From positions 1 to 48,697 of the forward strand of contig JBGUIY010000068.1 of the NCBI GenBank assembly GCA_045113475.1: 48,697 nt of DNA, written 5' to 3'. This document shows, piece by piece, positions 4,006 through 45,015 of the stretch. Source of the DNA: Christensenellales bacterium (GTDB lineage: Bacteria; Bacillota; Clostridia; Christensenellales; Aristaeellaceae). The translations under genes were made by a program, and so were the position numbers. The notes under the pieces are model-generated. The model was not told where the DNA came from and did not search any database. It was given only the letters and a program-made list of their open reading frames with translations. Within the stretch, counting starts at the first letter, position 1. Each line of letters opens with the position of its first letter.

Positions 4006-4059
4006 AGGCACGCAAGCGTCAGCTTGTTTCCCTGTATACAGACCGGAGAGAGCGGGGAA

Positions 4060-4170
4060 GAGTGGAGTGAGGAGAGTGGAGAGTGGAGAGTGGAGAGTGG
4101 AGGTAGCGGCGGCGCCTGCGCCGCCATGAGTGAGGAGTGAGTAATGAGGAGTGAGGAGTGAATAGTGACG
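4060..4170 (+). repeat. heptamer-array composite repeat, copy 1
   Basis: GAGTGGA heptamers: one at 4060-4066 and four perfect tandem copies at 4074-4101. Then a GC palindrome, GGCGGCGC-CT-GCGCCGCC (4108-4125). Then six GAGTGAG-type heptamers (4128-4169). Begins 54 nt after the stop of 1999-4005. Confidence 0.8.
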
Positions 4171-4710: not shown

Positions 4711-5832
4711 TCAGCTCTCCAGCTCGCGGCACTTCTCCAGCAGGGAGATGACCGGCAGGTGCTGGGGACAGGCGGATTCGCACTGGCCGCACTGGATGCA
4801 GTCGCTGGCACGGCCCTTTTCGCGGGTGACGTTGGTGTATTCGCGGACGATCCGGAAATGCGCGCTGCCCTTCTGGCGGTTGTAGACGGTGAAGATATCG
4901 GGGATCGGGATGTTCATGGGGCAGCCCTTGACGCAGTAGCGGCAGGCGGTGCAGGGGATGGACTTATCCATGTTCAGGGCTTCCTGCGCCTCGGCGATGA
5001 CGGCGCGCTCCGCGTCGTTCAAAGGATGGAAATCCTTCATATAGCTCAGGTTGTCTTCCATCTGCCCGAGTGTGCTCATACCGCTCAGGACCATCATCAC
5101 GTTATCCAGGCTCGCGGCGTAGCGGATGGCCCAGCTGGAGTAGGACAGGCCGTTCCCGGCTTTGTCGAATACCGCTTTGACCGCGGGGATGGGCTCTGCC
5201 AGCACGCCGCCCTTGACCGGCTCCATGATCACGACGGGCTTGCCGTGGGCCTTGCAGATCTCCCAGTTGCGGCGGGAGCTCACACCTGGATTCTCCCAGT
5301 CCGCGTAGTTGATCTGCAGCTGGACGAAATCGATCTCCGGATGCGCGCAGAGCAGCTCCTCCAGGAGTTCGGGATCGGCGTGGAAGGAAAAGCCGTAGCG
5401 CCTGATCAGGCCCTTCGCCTTCTGCTCCGCGGCGAAATCCCAGATATGGTACTCATCGTACTTTTTGTAATTGTTGCGCTGGAGGGCGTGCAGCAGATAA
5501 TAATCGAAATAGCCCGCGCCGGTGCGCTCCAGGCTGGTATAGAACTGCTGCCTGGCGCTGGCCTCGTCGTGGCACTGCTGCCAGGCGCACAGCTTGGTGC
5601 AGAGGGTATAGGCTTCCCGGGGATAGCGGTCCGCCACCGCCGCTTTGAAAGCCGCCTCGCTGCGCCCGCCGTCGTACACGTAGGCGGTGTCGAAATAGGT
5701 GCCGCCCGCGGCGATGAAGCGGTCGGCCATCTCGCAGACCTGGGGGATGTCGGTGCTGCCGTCGGCGTTCTTGGGCAGGCGCATCAGGCCGAAGCCCAGT
5801 TTGAGCGTCTTTTTATCCGGATGGTCACTCAT
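4711..5832 (-). CDS. aldo/keto reductase fused to a C-terminal 4Fe-4S ferredoxin-like domain
   Basis: Start taken at ATG 5832 (MSDHPDKK...), with GAAGGAG upstream. AKR motifs LGFGLMRLP and YFDTAYVYDGG. C-terminal CTACRYCVKGCP and CIQCGQCESACP cysteine clusters. Confidence 0.8.
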   Translation of the reverse strand: MSDHPDKKTLKLGFGLMRLPKNADGSTDIPQVCEMADRFIAAGGTYFDTAYVYDGGRSEAAFKAAVADRYPREAYTLCTKLCAWQQCHDEASARQQFYTSLERTGAGYFDYYLLHALQRNNYKKYDEYHIWDFAAEQKAKGLIRRYGFSFHADPELLEELLCAHPEIDFVQLQINYADWENPGVSSRRNWEICKAHGKPVVIMEPVKGGVLAEPIPAVKAVFDKAGNGLSYSSWAIRYAASLDNVMMVLSGMSTLGQMEDNLSYMKDFHPLNDAERAVIAEAQEALNMDKSIPCTACRYCVKGCPMNIPIPDIFTVYNRQKGSAHFRIVREYTNVTREKGRASDCIQCGQCESACPQHLPVISLLEKCRELES

Positions 5833-7057: not shown

Positions 7058-9292
7058 TCAGTATCCGCGTTCGAACAGCATGTATTCGCTGTCGTTCATC
7101 TGATAGCGCAGCTGCCCGTTCTCCTCCAGGGTCAGGCGCGCCTCGTCGTAGTACATCTGTCCGTTCGTCATCGTCCAGGTCTTGCCGCCGTCGGGGATGA
7201 TGTAGACCAGCTCGCCGGTGCCGTCGGCCTTCAGCGTCAGCCTCATGTCGATGTTCAGCTTCGCCGGATCCAGGGATACGCCGCCCGTGACCATCGCCAC
7301 GCCGCGCCACGTGCCCAGATAGGGCTCCACCGGGGATACCGGCGCGGGCGCCGGCGTCACCGTTACCGGGACGGGGGGCTCGGTATCGCGCTCAAAGATG
7401 AAGCAGCTGATTTCCGCTTTGTTATATTGCAGGGTGCCGTCATTCAGCAGGAAGAGCGGGATGCCGTTGTAGCGGAACTGACCGTCCACGATCATCCAGC
7501 TGCCGCCGCCGTCGGGGAAGCCTACGGTCAGCTCGCCGGTGCCGTCGGCGTTCAGCACCAGCGACAGCTCGATGCCCGACGCGGCGGGGTCGACAGACAT
7601 ACCGCCCGCGACGATCGCGATGCCGCGCCACCGGCCGATGTATTCAGCAGGATCGATCAGCGGGGGCTCCGGCGTGGGCGCGGGGGTCGGCACGGCCGTC
7701 GGTACCGGCGTGGGTACGGCGGTCGGGACTGCCGTTGGCACCGGCGTAGGCACGGGCGTGGGGACCGCCGTAGGAACTGCGGTAGGGATCGCAGTGGGGA
7801 CTGCGGTGGGAACCGGCGTGGGTTCCGCGGTGGGTTCGGGCGTCCGGACGGGGCGGATCACCGGCAATGCCGTGGCGGGGAAAGAGGGAAAGACCGCCGG
7901 CGCTTTGGTCGGCTCGGAGGTCTGGACGGGAGCGGAAGCCGGCGCCGCTGTCGCCGGGAAAATCGGCCAGAGGGGCCTGGGGGTGTCAGGCGAGGGCTCC
8001 GCGGTCGGTTCGGGCGTAGGCACGGACGTGGGGACTGCCGTAGGAGCTGCGGTGGGGACTGCGGTTGGAACGGGCGTCGGTTCGGGCGTTGGCACAGGTG
8101 TGGGCACCGGCGTCGGTTCCGGCGTGGGCTCGGGGGTCGGGGTCGCCGCCGGGCGCGGCGTCAGCCTGGGCAGGGGCTGCACGGCGCGTCCTGCCGGCGC
8201 GTCGATGCCCAGCGCGGCCAGCGCCGTCTGCGCCTGGGCGATGTCCGCGTCCGTCGCGTTCCAGCCCAGGAGCACCTGCTCGATCTTCGCGTCTTCAAAG
8301 GCGTCTGCCGGCATTTCCGGCACGGACGTCCCCGCGAAAGTCAGCGCGCCGATCTTCATGTCCGAGAAGGCCTCGCTGCCGACCTCTTTCAGCGACGCCG
8401 GAAGCGTGAACTCGGACATCGAAACGTAGGTGAAGGCGTCTCCGTCGATTTTGACGAGGCCCTCGGGCAGTATCACGCTTTCGACGTAGCTGCCCCTGAA
8501 GCACCCGTAACCGATCTCCTTCACGGTATCCGGCAGGACCGCCTGATAAATGTTCAGGTTGCCCTCGTTGAAAGCGTAGTTGCCGATACGGGTGACGGGC
8601 ACGCCGTCGATCTCCGGCGGTATGATCACGTTGACCGCAGCGCCGCTGTATAGTTTGATTTCCCCTTTTCCGGGATCGAAATCAAAGCACTCCGCCGGGG
8701 TATAATCCGGGATGACGGCGTTCCGTCCACTGGGCTGAACGTTCAGCCCTTCGGGCAGCGTACGCAGATACGCCTCCATCTGGTCGTCCGGCACGTAGAG
8801 CACAAAATCCGAAGGCAGGCTCCTGAAGGAGCCGCTTTTGAGCACCGGCACGGGGCCCGTGAAGGTGACCGACTTCAGCGCTTTGTCGAAGGCAAAGCAG
8901 CTTTCGCCGACATAGCAGAGGTTTGCCGGCAGCGTGATTTCCGTCAGCAGAGGACAGCCGTTGAAATTGCCGCCCGCGATGGCGCCCAGGCTGTCGGGCA
9001 GTATGACCTCCGTCAGCGCGGAGGTCTTGTACGTCGCCGAATCGCCGATCGACTGGATGCCCTCTTCAAAACGCAGTGAAGTCACGCTGCCGTTGTTCAT
9101 GAATACCGCGCGCTGTACCGTCGTGACCGGTTTGCCGCCGATCTCGGCGGGCACCGTCACGTCGCCGCCGGGGCCGGTATACTTGGTGATCCGGTTGCGG
9201 CTGTCAACGGTGTAGTCTTCGTCCGCCAGCGCCGTGCAGAATACGCAGCAGAGGCAGAGGGCCAGGGTGAGCAGCAGGATCGTTTTTTTCAT
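7058..9292 (-). CDS. secreted leucine-rich-repeat (BspA/LRR_5-like) surface protein with Pro/Thr linkers and a duplicated C-terminal domain
   Basis: Start at ATG 9292 (MKKTILLLTLALCLCCVFCTALA signal peptide), with GGAGG upstream. Repeated units of the type xVxLPxxLxxIGxxAFxxC. Long PT-rich linker. Two ~90-aa C-terminal repeats (YIGRWRG.../YLGTWRG...). Confidence 0.75.
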   Translation of the reverse strand: MKKTILLLTLALCLCCVFCTALADEDYTVDSRNRITKYTGPGGDVTVPAEIGGKPVTTVQRAVFMNNGSVTSLRFEEGIQSIGDSATYKTSALTEVILPDSLGAIAGGNFNGCPLLTEITLPANLCYVGESCFAFDKALKSVTFTGPVPVLKSGSFRSLPSDFVLYVPDDQMEAYLRTLPEGLNVQPSGRNAVIPDYTPAECFDFDPGKGEIKLYSGAAVNVIIPPEIDGVPVTRIGNYAFNEGNLNIYQAVLPDTVKEIGYGCFRGSYVESVILPEGLVKIDGDAFTYVSMSEFTLPASLKEVGSEAFSDMKIGALTFAGTSVPEMPADAFEDAKIEQVLLGWNATDADIAQAQTALAALGIDAPAGRAVQPLPRLTPRPAATPTPEPTPEPTPVPTPVPTPEPTPVPTAVPTAAPTAVPTSVPTPEPTAEPSPDTPRPLWPIFPATAAPASAPVQTSEPTKAPAVFPSFPATALPVIRPVRTPEPTAEPTPVPTAVPTAIPTAVPTAVPTPVPTPVPTAVPTAVPTPVPTAVPTPAPTPEPPLIDPAEYIGRWRGIAIVAGGMSVDPAASGIELSLVLNADGTGELTVGFPDGGGSWMIVDGQFRYNGIPLFLLNDGTLQYNKAEISCFIFERDTEPPVPVTVTPAPAPVSPVEPYLGTWRGVAMVTGGVSLDPAKLNIDMRLTLKADGTGELVYIIPDGGKTWTMTNGQMYYDEARLTLEENGQLRYQMNDSEYMLFERGY
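7660..8175 (-). repeat. Pro/Thr-rich low-complexity coding repeats (linker of the LRR protein)
   Basis: Encodes PTPEPTPEPTPVPTPVPT... and TPVPTAVPTAIPTAVPT... runs. The DNA is quasi-repetitive (GGCACGGGCGTGGGGAC-type units). Confidence 0.7.
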
Positions 9293-9382
9293 GGTACGTC
9301 CCTCCAGTCGTGTCGGCCGTTCAGCAAACGATTTTAAGTACATTGAAAGGGTTCCGTTCTGCTTTTCGGGTTTTTGTGACGC

Positions 9383-11200: not shown

Positions 11201-12343
11201 TCAGCTTTCTGATGTCTCCAGCACCGCCGCGCTCTCCTTCAGCAGCCGGATGACGGGCAGCTGCTGCGGGCACGCGGCCTCGCACTGCCCGCAGGCGATG
11301 CAGTCCGTCGCCCGTCCGTGCTCCTTCGTCGCGTTCCGGTAACGCCGGCGGGAGGCTTCGGTGGTGTTATAGATCAGGTGCTCGTTCATCGCCCGGAAGA
11401 TATCCGGGATCGGGATATTCATCGGGCAGCCGTCCACACAGTAGCGGCAGGCGGTGCAGCCGATGCTCTTCACGCTCATCAGCGCCCGGCGAGCCTGTTC
11501 CACCACGGCCAGCTGTCCGGCGTTCAGGCCGGTGAAGCCGGTCATGGTCTTCAGGTTGTCGCGCATCTGGTCAATGGCGGACATGCCGGACAGCACCGTC
11601 AGCACGCCCTCCTGCGAGGCAGCAAACCGCAGTGCCCAGCTGGCGGGGGAGGCCTCCGGATCGGCGGCGGTCAGCACGTCGCGCACGCGCTCTGGCGGGT
11701 TGGCCAGGGTCCCGCCCTTTACCGGCTCCATGACCACCACCGGTTTGCCGTGCGCACGCGCCACTTCGTAGCAGCGCCGGGAGGCGACACGGCTGTCCTC
11801 CCAGTCCGCGTAGTTGATCTGCAGCTGCACGAATTCAGCGTCGGGGTGTTCGGTCAGCAGCCGGTCGAGCAGCTCGGGGCCGGCGTGGAAAGAGAAGCCC
11901 CAGTGCCTGATCAGGCCTTCCGCCTTCATCCTGGCGGCAAAGTCCCAGATGCGGTATTCGTCGTACATGGGCAGGTTGCCCAGGCCGACGGCGTGGAGCA
12001 GATAAAAGTCGAAATATCCGGCTTCGGTGCGTTCCAGGCTGGTAAAGAGCTGGCGCTCCGCGGCCTCACGGTTTTCCGCCACCCGGGCGTTCAGCTTGGT
12101 CGCCAGCAGGAAGCGCTCCCGCGGATACCGCCGCACCAGCGCGTCCCGGGCCGCCTCCTCCGACAGGCCGCCGTCATACACGAAAGCGGTGTCAAAGTAG
12201 TTGAAGCCCTTCTCCAGGAACAGATCCGTCATTTCCATGATCTGCTCGATATCCATGGCGCCGTCTTCACGCCTGGGCAGGCGCATCAGCCCGAAGCCAA
12301 GCTTTCCGATCCCGTTTATCTCCAGCTCGCTCAGCAAGACCAT
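11201..12343 (-). CDS. aldo/keto reductase fused to a 4Fe-4S ferredoxin-like domain (paralog of 4711-5832)
   Basis: Start at ATG 12343, with GGAGG upstream. Motifs LGFGLMRLP, YFDTAFVYDGG, CTACRYCVDGCP and CIACGQCEAACP. Roughly half the residues match 4711-5832 by eye. Confidence 0.8.
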   Translation of the reverse strand: MVLLSELEINGIGKLGFGLMRLPRREDGAMDIEQIMEMTDLFLEKGFNYFDTAFVYDGGLSEEAARDALVRRYPRERFLLATKLNARVAENREAAERQLFTSLERTEAGYFDFYLLHAVGLGNLPMYDEYRIWDFAARMKAEGLIRHWGFSFHAGPELLDRLLTEHPDAEFVQLQINYADWEDSRVASRRCYEVARAHGKPVVVMEPVKGGTLANPPERVRDVLTAADPEASPASWALRFAASQEGVLTVLSGMSAIDQMRDNLKTMTGFTGLNAGQLAVVEQARRALMSVKSIGCTACRYCVDGCPMNIPIPDIFRAMNEHLIYNTTEASRRRYRNATKEHGRATDCIACGQCEAACPQQLPVIRLLKESAAVLETSES

Positions 12344-28864: not shown

Positions 28865-28939
28865 AAGTATGACGGACCCGGATTCGTTGGATTCGGGGCC
28901 GTTTTTATTTTGAGCATTTTTTGTTTGGAGAAAAGGAAA

Positions 28940-29010
28940 GAGTGGAGTTTGGAGAGTGGAGAGTGGAGTTGGAAGTGAGGAATGAAGGAGTCAGGAGTGA
29001 GATAATGACG
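28940..29010 (+). repeat. heptamer-array composite repeat, copy 2
   Basis: GAGTGGA-type heptamers (28940-28967) followed by AGTGAGG/AATGAAG/GAGTCAG/GAGTGAG-type heptamers (28974-29008). A GTAGCGGC...GCCGCTAC hairpin follows at 29028-29056. Begins 75 nt after the truA stop. Confidence 0.75.
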
Positions 29011-39194: not shown

Positions 39195-39201
39195 TCAACT
39201 G

Positions 39202-39239
39202 GTAGCCGGTTCTCTGTTGTTGTGCCGAGAACCGGCTAC
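39202..39239 (+). terminator. proS terminator hairpin
   Basis: Perfect 13-bp stem GTAGCCGGTTCTC (39202-39214) pairs with GAGAACCGGCTAC (39227-39239). The T-tract is weak (TGACTTTGT). Last GC-rich sequence before the low-GC island. Confidence 0.65.
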
Positions 39240-39303
39240 TGACTTTGTATAGATTGATTCTATTGGTGTGTTGACAATTTGATTTTCCTGGAGGTGATGA
39301 TGC

Positions 39304-42300
39304 ATGGTCATTAGCTGCAAGATGTGCGGTGGCGACTTAGTATTCAATCCAGGAGATACGTATGGCAATTGCTTACACTGTGGCCGGACATCGACTTTAC
39401 CAAAGATCGCTGACAACGACACAAGTCGGTTAAATCTTTATAGACTGGCAAACGCTTTTCTGATTTCGGGTGAATACGAAAAAGCAGAAAGTGCATATGA
39501 GGATATTCTTAAAATGGACCCTGATGAGGCAGAAGCTCATTGGGGCAGATTGCTGTGTAAATTTGGTGTTGAATATGTTGAAGACCCGTCAACACGACGC
39601 AGAATCCCAACATTGAATCGTATGTCAAAAATCTCGGTATTAGCCGACATAGATTTTGAAATTGCAAAAAAGAATGCCCGGGATTCGATCAGTAGGAGCA
39701 TTTATCAGCAAGACGCTGAAGAAATCGCTTCTATCCAAAGACAAATACTCAAATTAAAAACTGACGGAAAACCATTTGATGTATTTATATGCTACAAAGA
39801 TAAAGATGGCAGTGAACGTAGAACAGAAGATAGTGAGATAGCTGAAGAAATCTATAAAGTACTGACAAATAGGGGCTTACACGTCTTTTTTTCACGTGAG
39901 ACTCTAAAAAATGCCGCAGGTGTTCAGTTTGAGCCCATTATTTATGCTGCAATAAGCACTGCCAGAATAATGATCGTTGTTACAACTAACAAAGATTATG
40001 TTAGTAAAGAATCTGCCTGGGTATATAATGAATGGAATCGATATCTGAAAAGAATGAATGTTGGAACTCAGTTATTGATCCCGTGTTATAAAGGAATCCC
40101 CATTGAAGAATTACCCGAGGAATTGAAAGCTTTCCAATCTTACGATATTGGCAGTGTTACATTCCTAGAGCAGTTATTAGAACAGGTAAATAATTTTTTA
40201 AACATAAAGAATAAGGACACTCAAACGGATAATAAGCAAGTAAATCCGTCATCAATGAATATGGCAAATCGTGCCATGCTTGCATTAGAAGAATCTGATT
40301 TTAAAACCGCAGCGCAATTTGCTGAACAAGCATTAAACCTTGATGCATTCAATGGTTATGCTTACTTATGCAAGTTGTTAATTGAATATCAATTGCAAAA
40401 ACCAGAGCAACTTGCAAATTTGAAAACACCTCTTGATAAGTCAATAAACTATCAACGCGCTATCAGATATAGTGACGACTCTGTTAGAAAACCTCTCATT
40501 GAAATGAATGAAAGGATTGTTCTGCGCAACAAACAGATTATTGAAGAAAGAAACAGAAGAAAGAAAATACTTAATGATGCAGAAACTAAATTACTTTCAG
40601 CAGAAACGCTATCTGAGATAAATGATATAATGCGCCAACTCAAAAGCATTAGTGATTTTGAAGGCGTAAATGATGTCTTATCACAGTGCGAAAATAAGAA
40701 AGCACGTTATTATGAAAAACAGTATTCATTGGCCACTTCATTACAGCAAAGAAAGGATTATAGTGCAGCCCTTAAAACGTATAGTACTATTCTGGGTTAC
40801 AAAGATACAACGCAAAGAATAGAATTTTGCAAAAAGGAAATTCAAAGAATTAGCGAAGCGGAAAAAATCCTAAACGAAAGAAAAAGAGTAACAAAAGACC
40901 TAATTACAAGAGGTAATGAAGCATTAAAAAAGAAGGATTTTGAAACTTCAAGACTCTTTTTTGAACAAGTACTGACCAGTCAACCAAAGCATAATGATGG
41001 TTCCCTTGGCTTACTCTTTTCATTGCTAAGGGTTAGAAATTTTGATGAATTAGCTGGTTTATATGCTCCATTTGATAATGTAAAAGAGTATAATCAGCTA
41101 ATAAATAACTGTAATGATATTCAGCAAATGGCCATTGACCAATGTTTGAAAAAAATAAAACAACGCAATGAGAATGAAAAGAAACGAATTGTAGTAAACA
41201 ATGCAAAAAAGGCTTTAGAAAGCGCTACTACTATAGAAGAATGCCGAGAAATCCAAGAACAAATTGAACCACTTGCTGATTTCGAAGGCGTTAGGTCTGT
41301 TATTACTGACTGTGATATAAAGATCAACAGGATAAAGAGTGAAGAATACTTATCAGCATACAGATTAGAAGTACAGGAAGAATGGGATAAGGCCATTGAG
41401 ATCTATAAAAGACTTGAAGGTTATAATGATTCTGCAGAACGCATAGTTTTCTGTAAAATGCAAAAGGAGAAAAAGAAGGAAGAACTAGATCGTGAAAAAG
41501 AAGTACAAGAAGAAAAAGCTAGGCAGAGAGTCCTTGAACTAAAGAAAAAACAAAAGAAGCATCGTCTATTCATTATTTTTACAGCTATAGTGATTATATT
41601 GGTAATAATATATGTTGTATATGTTGTTCCTATGATGTATTATAGCAAAGGAATGGAATATGCAAAGAAAAAGGAATGGGATACTGCTATAGCTGAGTTT
41701 AAACTAGCAGGGAATTATAAGGATTCAGAAGTACAGATAAAGGAAATGAATTATTGTAAAGCAAAGGAATTACAAGATGTGGGTGACCATAGTACAGCAA
41801 TTGAGTTGTATAAATCATTAAGGGGCTATAAGCTTTCAGAACAATATATCAAACTAAGTCAAATGCAAATTGTTGGGAATACTATTAAGTATGGTCGGTA
41901 TGAGCAAGACAACGATTTAACAAATGGAAAAGAAGACATTGAATGGATAGTATTGAACGTACAAGAAGATGGCTTATGTGTTTTGACTACGCGTTACGCA
42001 TTAGATGCAAAACCATTTAGTTCAAAAAAAGAGAAAAATACAACATGGAATAATTCAACTGTAAGGGAATGGCTGAATAATGAGTTTTACAAAGATGCAT
42101 TTTCGGAAGAAACTGATATATTGTTAGCATCTACGGGTAAAGACAACGATCCTGGTAATGAAGGGCTAGAAATTAATGATGCAATTGAAGATGACAAAGT
42201 TTTTCTTCTTGGCTCCCAGGAAATCAACCATTTTTTTAAAACGAAAGATGAAAGAATATGTAGTGCTACCCCATATTTGGCTAATATGGATAAAGAATCT

Positions 42301-42504
42301 CAGCTATTCGTTGATACAGATAAAAATGTAGTTTGGCTTTTGCGTAGTATTAAGCAGGAAGATGGTACTGTATTAGGGGTATTTTGCGATGGTTCTCTTT
42401 GTAATGGAGCAGTTGATGCTATTGCAGCAATAAGACCTGCGATATGCATTAGTACTAGTAATGCAAGGTTATTACTACACGTAAAAGATATGTTGGAGGA
42501 GTAA
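39304..42504 (+). CDS. 1066-aa zinc-ribbon / TPR-like / TIR / single-TM / DUF6273-like protein (candidate transmembrane TIR sensor-effector)
   Basis: GGAGGTGA ~7 nt upstream of the ATG. Domains by residue: aa 5-26 CxxC-x14-CxxC; aa ~157-290 TIR (FDVFICYKDKD; SAWVYNEW with Glu243 at nt 40030-40032); aa 319-725 two ~205-aa helical repeats; aa 754-778 TM helix after KKKQKKHR; aa ~857-1050 DUF6273-like motifs (IEWIVLNV, STVREWLNNEFYKDAF, DKVFLLGSQE, VWLLRS, IRPAICIS). About 32% GC. Confidence 0.85.
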   Translation: MVISCKMCGGDLVFNPGDTYGNCLHCGRTSTLPKIADNDTSRLNLYRLANAFLISGEYEKAESAYEDILKMDPDEAEAHWGRLLCKFGVEYVEDPSTRRRIPTLNRMSKISVLADIDFEIAKKNARDSISRSIYQQDAEEIASIQRQILKLKTDGKPFDVFICYKDKDGSERRTEDSEIAEEIYKVLTNRGLHVFFSRETLKNAAGVQFEPIIYAAISTARIMIVVTTNKDYVSKESAWVYNEWNRYLKRMNVGTQLLIPCYKGIPIEELPEELKAFQSYDIGSVTFLEQLLEQVNNFLNIKNKDTQTDNKQVNPSSMNMANRAMLALEESDFKTAAQFAEQALNLDAFNGYAYLCKLLIEYQLQKPEQLANLKTPLDKSINYQRAIRYSDDSVRKPLIEMNERIVLRNKQIIEERNRRKKILNDAETKLLSAETLSEINDIMRQLKSISDFEGVNDVLSQCENKKARYYEKQYSLATSLQQRKDYSAALKTYSTILGYKDTTQRIEFCKKEIQRISEAEKILNERKRVTKDLITRGNEALKKKDFETSRLFFEQVLTSQPKHNDGSLGLLFSLLRVRNFDELAGLYAPFDNVKEYNQLINNCNDIQQMAIDQCLKKIKQRNENEKKRIVVNNAKKALESATTIEECREIQEQIEPLADFEGVRSVITDCDIKINRIKSEEYLSAYRLEVQEEWDKAIEIYKRLEGYNDSAERIVFCKMQKEKKKEELDREKEVQEEKARQRVLELKKKQKKHRLFIIFTAIVIILVIIYVVYVVPMMYYSKGMEYAKKKEWDTAIAEFKLAGNYKDSEVQIKEMNYCKAKELQDVGDHSTAIELYKSLRGYKLSEQYIKLSQMQIVGNTIKYGRYEQDNDLTNGKEDIEWIVLNVQEDGLCVLTTRYALDAKPFSSKKEKNTTWNNSTVREWLNNEFYKDAFSEETDILLASTGKDNDPGNEGLEINDAIEDDKVFLLGSQEINHFFKTKDERICSATPYLANMDKESQLFVDTDKNVVWLLRSIKQEDGTVLGVFCDGSLCNGAVDAIAAIRPAICISTSNARLLLHVKDMLEE

Positions 42505-42506
42505 AA

Positions 42507-43253
42507 ATGAGTAGTGAAAGCAAAAACAAGGAAGAACAGCGCCGGGAGCTGAACGGCATCACCTATTTTGACCGCGGACGGCTGACGGGCCGCGACGGGA
42601 AGCAGTACGACCGGTACGCCATCCAGACCCACTTCATCGAGGTGGGGGAGGATCAGGCGGAACTGGTGAAGAAGTACGTACTGCCCCTGTACCAGCCCGG
42701 GGACGTGATGGCCTTCGGCGCGAAGGTCATGGCCATGTGCACGAAGAACGTGCGCACCAAGGAGCAGGTGCATCCCGGCTTCTGGGCCAAGGCCCTGTCC
42801 CGCCATGCCAGCGAGACCAAAGCGGGCATCGGCATGCACGACGCGTACAAGCTGCAGCTGGCCATCGACATGGTCGGCGCGCCCAAGGTCGTGTTCGCGT
42901 CCGTCGCGTCTGCGGTGACCAAACTCTTCGGCGTGCACGGCGTGTTCTACAAGATCGTCGGCCCCGGCGTGGCGGGCATCGACGGCTTCTATTACCGTTC
43001 GTCCTTCGACCGTTACAAGGACCTGGCGCTGATAAACAACACCAATGCCCAGGAGCTCTGCGACGCGCTGGAAAAGGCGACGGGCGTGCCCGTGGTGCTG
43101 ATGGACGCCAACGATATCGACCAGAACCAGCTGGGCAAGTGCCATGACTTCCCGCTCACGGACGAACAGATCCAGGACGCGCTGAAGGACAATCCCTCCG
43201 GCCAGGGCGGCGAACTGACGCCCTTCATTCTGATCCGCCCGGTCAGGGAGTGA
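42507..43253 (+). CDS. CofE-like (F420-0:gamma-glutamyl ligase fold) family protein, function uncertain
   Basis: 248 aa. The ATG lies 2 nt after the TIR-gene stop, with GGAGGAG inside that gene's 3' end. PGDVMAFGAKVMAM, VAGIDG, VVLMDANDI and NPSGQGGELTPF resemble the CofE fold family. Confidence 0.5.
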   Translation: MSSESKNKEEQRRELNGITYFDRGRLTGRDGKQYDRYAIQTHFIEVGEDQAELVKKYVLPLYQPGDVMAFGAKVMAMCTKNVRTKEQVHPGFWAKALSRHASETKAGIGMHDAYKLQLAIDMVGAPKVVFASVASAVTKLFGVHGVFYKIVGPGVAGIDGFYYRSSFDRYKDLALINNTNAQELCDALEKATGVPVVLMDANDIDQNQLGKCHDFPLTDEQIQDALKDNPSGQGGELTPFILIRPVRE

Positions 43254-44088: not shown

Positions 44089-44109
44089 AGCACGGAAATT
44101 GTGAGAACG

Positions 44110-45015
44110 ATGAGCGTATATCAGAAGAATCTGCGCAGGCTGGGCCTGTTCCTGATCGCCGTGTCGTTCCTGGATGCGTTCCTCGAACTGGCCTTCTACA
44201 GATACCTGCTGGCCTCGCCGGTCATGTTTTCCCGGCAGATACAGACGCCGGCCGGCATCTGCGTCAAGGACGGCATTGGCCTGCTGACTGGCGGCCTGGC
44301 CTGCCTGCTGTACTATCGCAGGGAGCATTCCCGATGGGCCATCAAGGTCATGATCGTGCTGCTGATCCTGGCAGTTCCGGCCGTCCTGGCCACGACCCGG
44401 GGCAATGCGACCAACCGCGTCGACGGGCTGATCAACGTGACGCTGATCCTCACGGTGCTGGTGGTCTACACCGCGCTGCAGCTGGACAGGAGCGGGCACA
44501 ACTGGCAGAAGATCCGGGATTCCAAACCGGCCATGCTGGATCTGAAACTCAGGGACGTCCGCCAGTGGTTCAACCCCATCGAGATCGGGCCCAAGCTGGA
44601 ACTGAGCGGGGAGATTTCCTCCGTGGTGGACCGTTTCCTGGCAACGTCGAAGCAGGCGCGGCCGCTGGGGATCACCATCCGGTGTCCGAACGAGGTTTCG
44701 GAACCGATGCGGGCCACCATGCAGGAAGTCTTTCAGATGTACTATGAGGACGAGGAGCGCCGGATCAATACCTACCTGGAAAGGCGCTATATCCGGGCCA
44801 TGGCCCTGGCAATCATCAGCATCGTCACGGTATCGGTGTGGATCAACTTTTCCCCGTCCAACGACGAAGGCGTGACCTGGACGATCCTGAGCAATTTCGC
44901 GGCCTTCAGCCTCTGGCAGATCGGCAACACCTATTTCGAGCGCTCCGAGGGCTACGACGAGCTGCTCCGGGCCCAGATCGCGAGCCAGGCAAAACTGCAT
45001 TTCTGGGCCGAATAA
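44110..45015 (+). CDS. hypothetical membrane protein
   Basis: ATG 44110 (alternative GTG 44101). Four N-terminal and two C-terminal hydrophobic helices around a soluble loop. No family recognised. Confidence 0.55.
   Translation: MSVYQKNLRRLGLFLIAVSFLDAFLELAFYRYLLASPVMFSRQIQTPAGICVKDGIGLLTGGLACLLYYRREHSRWAIKVMIVLLILAVPAVLATTRGNATNRVDGLINVTLILTVLVVYTALQLDRSGHNWQKIRDSKPAMLDLKLRDVRQWFNPIEIGPKLELSGEISSVVDRFLATSKQARPLGITIRCPNEVSEPMRATMQEVFQMYYEDEERRINTYLERRYIRAMALAIISIVTVSVWINFSPSNDEGVTWTILSNFAAFSLWQIGNTYFERSEGYDELLRAQIASQAKLHFWAE

Follow-up and report, generated by a model that had tools for sequence, protein, structure and literature searches.

A putative single-pass surface receptor joining a TIR head to a DUF6273 lectin-like domain, carried as an orphan accessory gene by a Christensenellales bacterium

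Lectin-fold sensors that are often diversified by diversity-generating retroelements (DGRs) and joined to Toll/interleukin-1 receptor (TIR) domains or other effectors have been proposed for multicellular Proteobacteria and Cyanobacteria. As described by Dore et al. (2024, PMC10907252), Kaur et al. (2020, PMC7159879) and Vallota-Eastman et al. (2020, PMC7517822), these DGR-lectin sensors are joined or linked to TIR, caspase and STAND modules, are characterized by STAND or MoxR-vWA NTPases and an FGE-sulfatase lectin fold, are mostly predicted to be cytoplasmic and are found in Proteobacteria, Cyanobacteria and Actinobacteria. Here, a gene in 48,697 nucleotides of a Christensenellales bacterium (contig JBGUIY010000068.1; this whole 48.7-kb stretch is referred to as the window) is analyzed together with its relatives. 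It encodes a putative membrane receptor, hereafter the receptor, with a zinc-ribbon/TPR/TIR head at the N-terminus and a DUF6273 domain at the C-terminus. The receptor family has in common with the DGR-lectin sensors the C-terminal lectin-fold sensor and the N-terminal effector, a sensor hypervariability which is partly generated by DGRs, multiple paralogues per genome and a predicted role in conflict or immunity. In contrast, it has no NTPase, uses DUF6273, is predicted to cross the membrane once, carries the zinc-ribbon/TPR/TIR head, is linked to genes for an SPFH protein and a protein with four transmembrane helices (4-TM), and resides in gut and rumen Clostridia. In the openly searchable literature, subscription journals not being covered, no description of the membrane-spanning DUF6273 family, of the zinc-ribbon/TPR/TIR head or of the SPFH linkage was found; the "TIR" of a comparative-genomics paper on the PSP system turned out to be an unrelated CesT/Tir chaperone. 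A preliminary description of this DNA had stated that no TIR-DUF6273 membrane system was known, which stands for the family itself, although the principle has been proposed for other bacteria. The novelty is the membrane-spanning, SPFH-linked Clostridial variant and not the principle of lectin sensor and TIR effector, which itself is so far only predicted.

The receptor is encoded by an open reading frame (ORF) of 1066 aa at 39304-42504 on the + strand, which starts with ATG (ORF list). The domain order of the preliminary description was recovered with slightly shifted residue numbers by the ORF list, Pfam and AlphaFold2 (AF2), and the individual elements are as follows.

39304-42504, + strand: receptor coding sequence, TIR-transmembrane helix-DUF6273 (ORF list, Pfam, homologues)
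39316-39381, + strand: Cys4 zinc ribbon, aa 5-26, with C5, C8, C23 and C26 (Cys conservation, AF2 strands)
39421-39561, + strand: three TPR-like helices, aa 40-86 (Pfam TPR_1, AF2 helices)
39565-39615, + strand: family-signature beta-hairpin GVEYVEDP...PTLNR, aa 88-104 (conservation, AF2 strands)
39772-40203, + strand: TIR domain, aa 157-300 (Pfam TIR_2, Foldseek)
40030-40032, + strand: Glu243 codon, predicted catalytic Glu of the W239-x3-E243 motif (invariance, alignments)
40285-40833, + strand: predicted cytoplasmic helical module, copy 1, aa 328-510, ending in a GYKD...C TPR-like repeat (BLASTP, motif scan)
40924-41457, + strand: predicted cytoplasmic helical module, copy 2, aa 541-718 (BLASTP)
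41542-41565, + strand: basic cluster KKKQKKHR, aa 747-754, on the predicted cytoplasmic side of the membrane helix (sequence, flank charge counts)
41566-41637, + strand: single transmembrane helix, aa 755-778 (Kyte-Doolittle)
41638-41850, + strand: predicted extracellular TPR-like helical stalk repeats, aa 779-849 (homologue alignment; motif scan match at aa 820)
41848-42504, + strand: predicted extracellular DUF6273 / C-type-lectin-like domain, AF2 aa 849-1066 (Pfam, AF2, Foldseek)
42331-42444, + strand: segment equivalent to the DGR variable region of relatives, aa 1010-1047, VWLLRS to IRPA (variable-region/template mapping in relatives)

The TIR domain is matched by Pfam TIR_2 over aa 160-283 (E 5e-11, 43.6 bits vs a cut-off of 28). 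Foldseek analysis of the AF2 model of aa 1-310 (pLDDT 88, pTM 0.82) assigned a probability of 1.0 to more than 30 TIR structures with the flavodoxin-like alpha/beta fold, so that the earlier TIR call holds. The best matches were L7, RUN1, AbTir bound to 3AD and SARM1, all of which we take to be enzymatically active, NAD-cleaving TIR domains, and AbTir (7uxu) agreed with the model with a TM score of 0.79 over the target and a root-mean-square deviation of 2.6 Å. The TIR filaments of MyD88, MAL and TRIF, which are scaffolding and non-enzymatic, were also among the matches. Glu243, whose codon does lie at 40030-40032, and the surrounding W-x3-E motif are invariant across 75 aligned homologues. 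A single-sequence search aligned Glu243 with the Roq1 glutamate, counted as E86, and a profile search with the glutamates of L6 (KWCLMEL), Brucella TcpB (QWPAREL), the bacterial TIR 7uxr (NWTEYEL) and TLR15, which agrees with the catalytic role assigned to this residue in the preliminary description. Since the catalytic W-x3-E glutamate is kept, the TIR domain is predicted to cleave NAD+, resulting in depletion or in a nucleotide signal. The receptor thereby shares with the TIR NADases AbTir, TcpB/BtpA, Thoeris ThsB, SARM1 and plant TNL the TIR fold, the aligned W-x3-E glutamate and the expected activation by self-association. The known bacterial TIR NADases are soluble, whereas the receptor is predicted to be membrane-tethered and to carry an extracellular domain. 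Unlike ThsB of Thoeris, it stayed below the model thresholds: a PADLOC search of the window protein gave 0 matches to defence models, Thoeris ThsB included, and the NCBIfam model of the Thoeris type III protein ThcB4 reached 20 bits vs a cut-off of 220. Furthermore, no ThsA-type (SIR2/SLOG) partner was found among the flanking window genes checked.

The remainder of the head is highly conserved as well. The four cysteines of the zinc ribbon are invariant or nearly so in alignments of 20 and 75 homologues, and AF2 places strands at aa 11-13, 20-23 and 29-31; no significant Pfam match was obtained for this element (best A2L_zn_ribbon, E 0.47). TPR_1 exceeds its curated Pfam cut-off at aa 45-74 (E 1e-12), with AF2 helices at aa 40-54, 58-71 and 76-86. 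In the following hairpin, G88 and E90-P95 do not vary among the homologues, and AF2 gives strands at aa 89-93 and 100-104.

Between the head and the membrane the protein contains the duplicated helical modules already noted in the preliminary description (aa 328-510 vs 541-718; BLASTP E 1e-22, 29% identity). The second copy is missing from most relatives, whose membrane helix comes earlier (median start ~aa 550). The Kyte-Doolittle profile of the receptor exhibits one hydrophobic peak of 3.25 at ~aa 755-778, the runner-up anywhere in the protein reaching 1.47. Evidently, the single helix formerly placed at aa 754-778 is correct except for its start, as the basic cluster reaches aa 754 and the helix runs from ~aa 755. 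The topology was analyzed for 208 homologues with the N-terminal TIR motif by counting Lys and Arg in the 15 residues on either side of the helix. Exactly one strongly hydrophobic segment was present in 194 of the 208 proteins; the mean Lys+Arg count was 6.7 before and 2.2 after the helix, the N-terminal side was richer in 193 of these 194 single-helix members, and the lectin motif lay C-terminal to the helix in 156 of 157 family members. The hydropathy scan revealed no N-terminal hydrophobic segment or signal sequence in the receptor. One helix, the positive-inside bias, the lack of a signal sequence and the N-terminal position of the Cys4 zinc site and the NAD-using domain together support the prediction of a single-pass membrane protein with the TIR domain inside and the lectin outside (N-in/C-out), corroborating the orientation proposed before. 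An anti-sigma factor (zf-HC2 / Sigma_reg_N) was considered and rejected: Sigma_reg_N scored 18.3 bits vs a cut-off of 26.3 and spans the membrane helix alone. No sigma factor gene adjoins the receptor gene according to the ORF list and the flanking genes.

The predicted topology resembles that of metazoan Toll-like receptors with respect to the external ligand-binding domain, the one helix and the cytoplasmic TIR domain, and both form large paralogous families with divergent ectodomains. Unlike in Toll-like receptors, the TIR domain is N-terminal, a signal peptide is missing, the ectodomain is a lectin fold without a match to leucine-rich repeats (Pfam), and the TIR domain most resembles TIRs which we take to be enzymatic; nothing points to a shared origin of the architecture as a whole. 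Of the Toll-like-receptor logic invoked in the preliminary description the three-part arrangement is retained, but the polarity is reversed and the ectodomain is of the lectin instead of the leucine-rich-repeat type, leaving an analogy only.

As for the ectodomain, the DUF6273 profile matches aa 890-1050 with an E of 1.9e-16 (60.8 bits vs a cut-off of 23.5). Foldseek matched the AF2 model of aa 849-1066 (pLDDT 89.8) to the IgA peptidase of Thomasclavelia ramosa (9qa6, E 2.7e-5) and to the C-terminal domain of Legionella Lcl (8q4e, probability 0.94), weaker matches being the animal C-type lectins CD94, CD23 and SP-D. The profile match and the fold match to 9qa6 bear out the earlier DUF6273 call. 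DUF6273 has been described as a C-type-lectin-like fold and as the DGR-mutagenized receptor-binding domain of gut phages (PMC10743442; bioRxiv 10.1101/2024.10.15.618418), and it also forms the N-terminal domain of the T. ramosa IgA protease ThomasA (PMC12402451). In our searches 22 phage proteins matched this domain of the receptor at E<1e-3 (E ~1e-8 for phage DUF6273 proteins); about half of them are named DUF6273 domain-containing, and a few are named receptor-binding or tail-fibre. With the phage receptor-binding proteins ("tentaclins", Mtd-like DGR targets) and the IgA protease the receptor has the domain family, the fold and the external binding role in common, and with the phage proteins also where the DGR variable region lies, namely at the domain's C-terminal end. 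The difference lies in the context, as those proteins are part of the virion or secreted and combine DUF6273 with Ig-like or peptidase partners, whereas the DUF6273 domain of the receptor would be anchored to a cytoplasmic TIR module. The C-type-lectin-like fold and the DGR-mutagenized receptor-binding role in phages and in some family members support the assignment of the modelled ectodomain as a putative extracellular ligand binder, the variable input of the receptor, in line with the external ligand binder anticipated in the preliminary description.

The family is large. A word-indexed search unveiled more than 5,400 relatives, with TIR_2 and DUF6273 both present in nearly all of the best 120, and an exhaustive HMMER search of representatives at 50% identity gave 4,339 at E<=1e-30, almost all of them cellular. 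A phage origin was rejected, only 2 of 2.9 million viral contigs carrying a relative. The scan of one genome per species returned at least 576 matching stretches, of which the best 80 are nearly all from metagenome-assembled genomes of gut or rumen Clostridia, with hosts in Oscillospiraceae, Acutalibacteraceae, Christensenellales, Lachnospiraceae and Ruminococcus. The sole source name seen for the relatives is the generic "toll/interleukin-1 receptor domain-containing protein". The conserved core comprises the N-terminal ~300-400 aa with the motifs CKMCGG, G-x-EYVEDP, DVFICYK and WV-x-NEW. The window gene is no rarity but a divergent member of a family that numbers thousands: it is 30-45% identical to its relatives, keeps every invariant family residue and differs at near-invariant positions, e.g. 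C104, H105 and W1012.

In contrast to the conserved head, the sensor end is variable. Two to six tandem paralogues are found in 25 of 80 loci, and within these arrays the first 300 aa have a median identity of 56-100% vs 16-58% for the last 200 aa. The strain variants L166 and L168 have identical flanks, their receptors being 100% identical to ~aa 350 and 20-48% identical thereafter. Further ectodomain variants contain five DUF6273 repeats, or RCC1 repeats and an SH3 domain replacing DUF6273. The combination of identical N-terminal coding sequence and unrelated 3' parts in L031 and in L166/L168 could reflect a recombinase-driven, shufflon-like switching of ectodomain cassettes. Furthermore, a bAvd-like gene (E 9e-9) and/or a reverse transcriptase gene (RVT_1, E 2e-20) is located 3' of the receptor gene in 6 of 82 loci. 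In three loci (L055, L067 and L071) a ~125-nt repeat at the 3' end of the receptor gene, the variable region, pairs with a template copy ~700 nt downstream, and 21 of 21, 24 of 26 and 18 of 21 mismatches, respectively, fall at template adenines. Such adenine-specific mismatches are the diagnostic signature of a DGR, and since they fall inside the lectin domain, where the variable region spans WWLRSPG to VRPA, they indicate DGR mutagenesis of this domain in the three loci. For L027 no pair of variable region and template was found at the settings used in the repeat search, though Avd and reverse transcriptase are present. For the window gene itself, neither a repeat of its 3' region nor a reverse transcriptase or Avd homologue was found in the window, so it is not shown to be a DGR target; a DGR outside the window may act on it in trans.

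The genomic neighborhood of the relatives was surveyed by calling and clustering the ORFs of 80 loci, 22 of which were well-flanked, i.e. with at least 4 kb on each side. Two neighbour families stood out, one (c1) being present in 45 and the other (c2) in 44 of the 80 loci, and both in 17 of the 22 well-flanked ones; from the remaining 5 of 22 the partners are missing. The c1 protein belongs to the SPFH type (Band_7_1, E 1e-38) and carries a SHOCT tail or additional zinc ribbons, and c2 is a 4-TM protein of ~234 aa without Pfam match and with ~1,200 homologues, all annotated as hypothetical. The usual order is c1, c2, receptor, almost always on the same strand, with the c2 end often 8-40 bp from the receptor gene. 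On eight independently annotated contigs (L163-L170) the order was the same: a tyrosine recombinase, Band_7_1+SHOCT, c2, a variable small gene, the receptor and a 172-215-aa gene. The variable small gene encodes 169 aa, 356 aa or a 141-aa TIR protein and is missing in one locus. Contrary to what had been suggested in the preliminary description, the receptor is thus usually not a single-gene system, since relatives are commonly linked to SPFH (Band_7_1-SHOCT) and 4-TM genes. The window copy is an orphan: tblastn of 90 c1 and c2 proteins detected no SPFH (c1) and no 4-TM (c2) homologue in the window, nor is there a second family copy. It either works alone or via partners which are encoded elsewhere.

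A comparable linkage is known from B. subtilis, where the soluble SPFH protein YdjI/SamI is recruited by membrane partners into a stress-sensing complex (PMC8581546; bioRxiv 10.64898/2026.02.06.704340). As in the YdjGHI/SamGHI-PspA system, the relatives encode a soluble SPFH protein of the Band_7 type, whose tail is of low complexity and contains a zinc ribbon or SHOCT, beside integral membrane proteins that could recruit it. Unlike in that system, there is no PspA, no PspA gene having been seen adjoining in the annotated loci, the third gene is the TIR-lectin receptor, and the trio is missing from the window; moreover, YdjH is a TPM-domain protein (PMC11237479), whereas the 4-TM partner has no Pfam match.

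Several additional genes accompany the core operon. The tyrosine recombinase of ~280 aa (e.g. L166:5674-6513) immediately precedes the SPFH gene in each of the eight annotated loci and forms cluster c44 in L066/L053. The unannotated 172-215-aa gene directly 3' of the receptor, likewise in 8 of 8 annotated loci (L163:12176-12823, L168:11659-12300, L166:12642-13160), might belong to the system as its fourth component. P0264 (378 aa), a homologue of the 4-TM protein at L066:8835-9533, extends into a C-terminal TIR domain. It corresponds to c2 together with the small TIR gene located behind c2 in L066, L015 and L168, and could represent either a genuine fusion or a frameshift or read-through. Cluster c10 (L036:8928-9977, L003:2710-3606, L016) consists of ~350-aa proteins encoded between the 4-TM gene and the receptor, which have an N-terminal zinc ribbon and a TPR-like region like the receptor head, no TIR domain and a Cys-rich C-terminal motif, CYVATCVYGSYDCPEVW. 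Candidate defence genes were also encountered. ApeA, a Schlafen/AlbA-type ATPase and TnpV are near in 5 of the 8 annotated loci, and in 3 of those Fic and HEPN-Toprim as well. A small TIR protein embedded in some loci matches PADLOC PDC-S66 (8e-40) and ThsB (2e-23), and DUF2971 (PDC-S31, 4e-28), HEPN pEK499_p136 and a weak AbiH/SIR2-like protein are also embedded. Outside the core, the neighbours are heterogeneous, the most recurrent one in an uncontrolled Pfam survey of 134 neighbours being a serine recombinase.

In the host genome, the receptor gene resides on a foreign segment; the segment and the features of its upstream end are as follows.

39195-42515, + strand: low-GC (~33%) foreign segment carrying the receptor gene alone (GC profile, empty-site contig L083)
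39197-39245, + strand: GC-rich, terminator-like hairpin after proS (sequence read; terminator scan match 39197-39211)
39290-39294, + strand: ribosome-binding site GGAGG, 9 nt 5' of the ATG (sequence read)

The GC profile gives ~33% for the receptor gene vs ~62% for the window. The flanks are ordinary, with the prolyl-tRNA synthetase gene (proS) upstream and an ORF that weakly matches an F420-ligase-like protein downstream, followed by a gene for a PHP-associated domain protein and further genes. The metagenome contig L083 represents the empty site: the end of proS is 100% identical (223 aligned residues) and the downstream gene 98%, the two being separated by 151 bp without a TIR gene. The window and L083 are homologous up to the stop codon of proS and again from codon 4 of the downstream ORF onwards, so that ~3.3 kb (39195 to ~42515) stand in place of the native 151-bp spacer and of the ribosome-binding site and the first three codons of the downstream gene. 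In the window, the ribosome-binding site of the latter, GGAGGAG (42496-42515), overlaps the last codons of the TIR gene, and its first three codons are ATG AGT AGT vs ATG GGC ACT at the empty site, indicating that the insertion rewrote the start of the neighbouring gene. The translation or transcription of this neighbour is probably coupled to the inserted gene. The hairpin after proS is not homologous to that of the empty site, and the C-terminal tail of the receptor is longer than in relatives, reaching the insertion junction. No mobility gene is present in the 39195-42515 segment, and no obvious target-site duplication was seen at its junctions. The receptor gene is an accessory gene of its host, given the GC contents of 33% vs 62% and the empty site in L083. 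The extreme GC mismatch implies that it arrived recently, by horizontal transfer. In other genomes the GC content of the receptor gene is near that of the flanks (median difference -1.7 points). An assembly chimera is unlikely, as two precise misjoins at one intergenic spacer would be required. The identical protein (P0001) is also encoded on a separate ENA contig of 3657 bp, the only such record, whose size is approximately that of the low-GC segment. It seems that, in metagenomes, the low-GC island is assembled separately from its high-GC host, so that genes of this kind may escape notice or be mis-binned.

With respect to these data we lean, by a narrow margin of confidence, towards an outside-in conflict or defence receptor with a surface lectin sensor and a cytoplasmic TIR output, a reading that is derived from sequence and models. 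The N-terminal zinc ribbon/TPR/hairpin/TIR module would be the conserved cytoplasmic output, and the TPR-like helical repeats would form a stalk extending from either face of the membrane. The variable lectin domain would bind an external ligand that evolves fast, a phage particle or the surface of another cell being most plausible, and this binding would cluster the receptors. As TIR NADases are switched on by self-association (SARM1, plant TNLs, AbTir), the clustered TIR domains would self-associate and then cleave NAD+, which would arrest or kill the cell or trigger a downstream effector. In relatives, the soluble SPFH protein and the 4-TM partner would probably scaffold or restrain the clustering at the membrane, by analogy with the recruitment of YdjI/SamI by its membrane partners. 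More specific versions of this reading are held more tentatively. It is possible, though we would not yet favour it, that the receptor family is the bacterial equivalent of the surface immune receptors of animals, combining a hypervariable lectin ectodomain, SPFH-scaffolded clustering and a TIR NADase. Similarly tentative is the proposal that the ectodomain is diversified by paralogue arrays, cassette exchange and DGRs and sees phage particles or foreign cells.

Several points weigh against the outside-in receptor. The conserved glutamate alone is no proof of catalysis, as TLR15 has a glutamate at the same position and we know of no NADase activity of TLR TIR domains. The presence of the same helical repeats on both sides of the membrane is unusual. 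A DGR is found in only 6 of 82 loci and not in the window, and the window copy, being divergent and without the usual partners, may not be fully functional. The receptor, SPFH and 4-TM proteins match no PADLOC defence model, and the association with defence islands, for which there is no control, is anecdotal. Defence candidates and recombinases do occur in some loci, but the surroundings are heterogeneous, and the genes beyond the core operon are mostly ordinary housekeeping genes.

Among the alternatives, a surface lectin or adhesin organizer, in which DUF6273 binds glycans or proteins of the host or of neighbours for attachment and the TIR/TPR part serves with SPFH as an oligomerization scaffold that gathers the adhesin into membrane patches, involving neither NAD chemistry nor immunity, appears unlikely. 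Binding-type proteins do contain DUF6273, e.g. the ThomasA IgA protease (PMC12402451) and the phage receptor-binding proteins, DGR targets in commensals are often surface binders, and SPFH proteins organize membrane complexes (PMC8581546). The scaffolding TIR filaments of MyD88, MAL and TRIF among the Foldseek matches would fit as well. A mere scaffold is, however, at odds with the invariance of the W-x3-E glutamate and its surrounding motif across the 75 homologues, with the best structural matches being TIR domains which we take to be enzymatically active, and with the small ThsB-like TIR, HEPN and DUF2971 defence-candidate genes embedded in the operons.

To a similarly low degree we consider it probable that the gene is a functionless passenger in its host genome, that is, an orphan fragment of the three-gene system which is intact only because the transfer was recent. 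The absence of an SPFH or 4-TM homologue and of a second family copy from the 48.7 kb, the extreme GC mismatch with the recent arrival it suggests, the divergence of this member and its long C-terminal tail reaching the junction are consistent with a passenger, and a consensus sigma-70-type promoter, sought upstream on the + strand, was not found. The ORF is nevertheless intact over 3.2 kb, all invariant residues of the family are present, it has a good ribosome-binding site and a TTGACA upstream (sequence read), and 5 of 22 well-flanked relatives are likewise without the partners. Least probable is an envelope-integrity monitor of the YdjGHI/PspA kind, in which the SPFH/4-TM/receptor trio would sense damage to its own membrane or wall, the lectin holding the cell's own wall polysaccharide (lectin folds of the Legionella Lcl and DUF1566 types bind polysaccharide) and the TIR domain signalling stress, because a constant self ligand is at odds with swapped-ectodomain arrays, mosaics between strains and hypermutation by DGRs, the genes are accessory and have been transferred horizontally, and no PspA gene adjoins in the annotated loci.

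Apart from the receptor locus, the window contains a 304-aa multi-pass membrane protein (44101-45015, +) with a weak, sub-threshold match (E 1.9e-4) to DUF4231, which we take to be a member of the SLATT family of two-TM conflict-system effectors. A 761-aa protein (7058-9343, -) with a hydrophobic N-terminal segment and Pro/Thr-rich linkers (PTPE/PTAV)n, which originate from 12-nt periodic repeats (7647-7868 and 7965-8198), is probably a surface protein. Short tandem repeats of the GAGTGGA type occur at two distant sites (4034-4115 and 28914-28981), and collinear repeats at 4891-5547 and 11396-12052 with 73-83% identity and a constant offset of 6505 nt look like paralogous genes.

The receptor family gives DUF6273 a cellular role, and its linkage suggests a job for the widespread SPFH/4-TM gene pair; the window furthermore documents that this gene is able to travel on its own between genomes that differ strongly. 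To our knowledge, the characterized bacterial TIR defence systems sense infection inside the cell. If the outside-in receptor proposed here is true, bacteria would also monitor threats or neighbours at the cell surface, possibly by an immune or abortive-infection route in operation before or during entry of the genome. Its receptor logic would then be convergent on that of Toll-like receptors, with a diversification reminiscent of antigen receptors, and with clear point mutants and ectodomain swaps at hand the family offers a tractable model.

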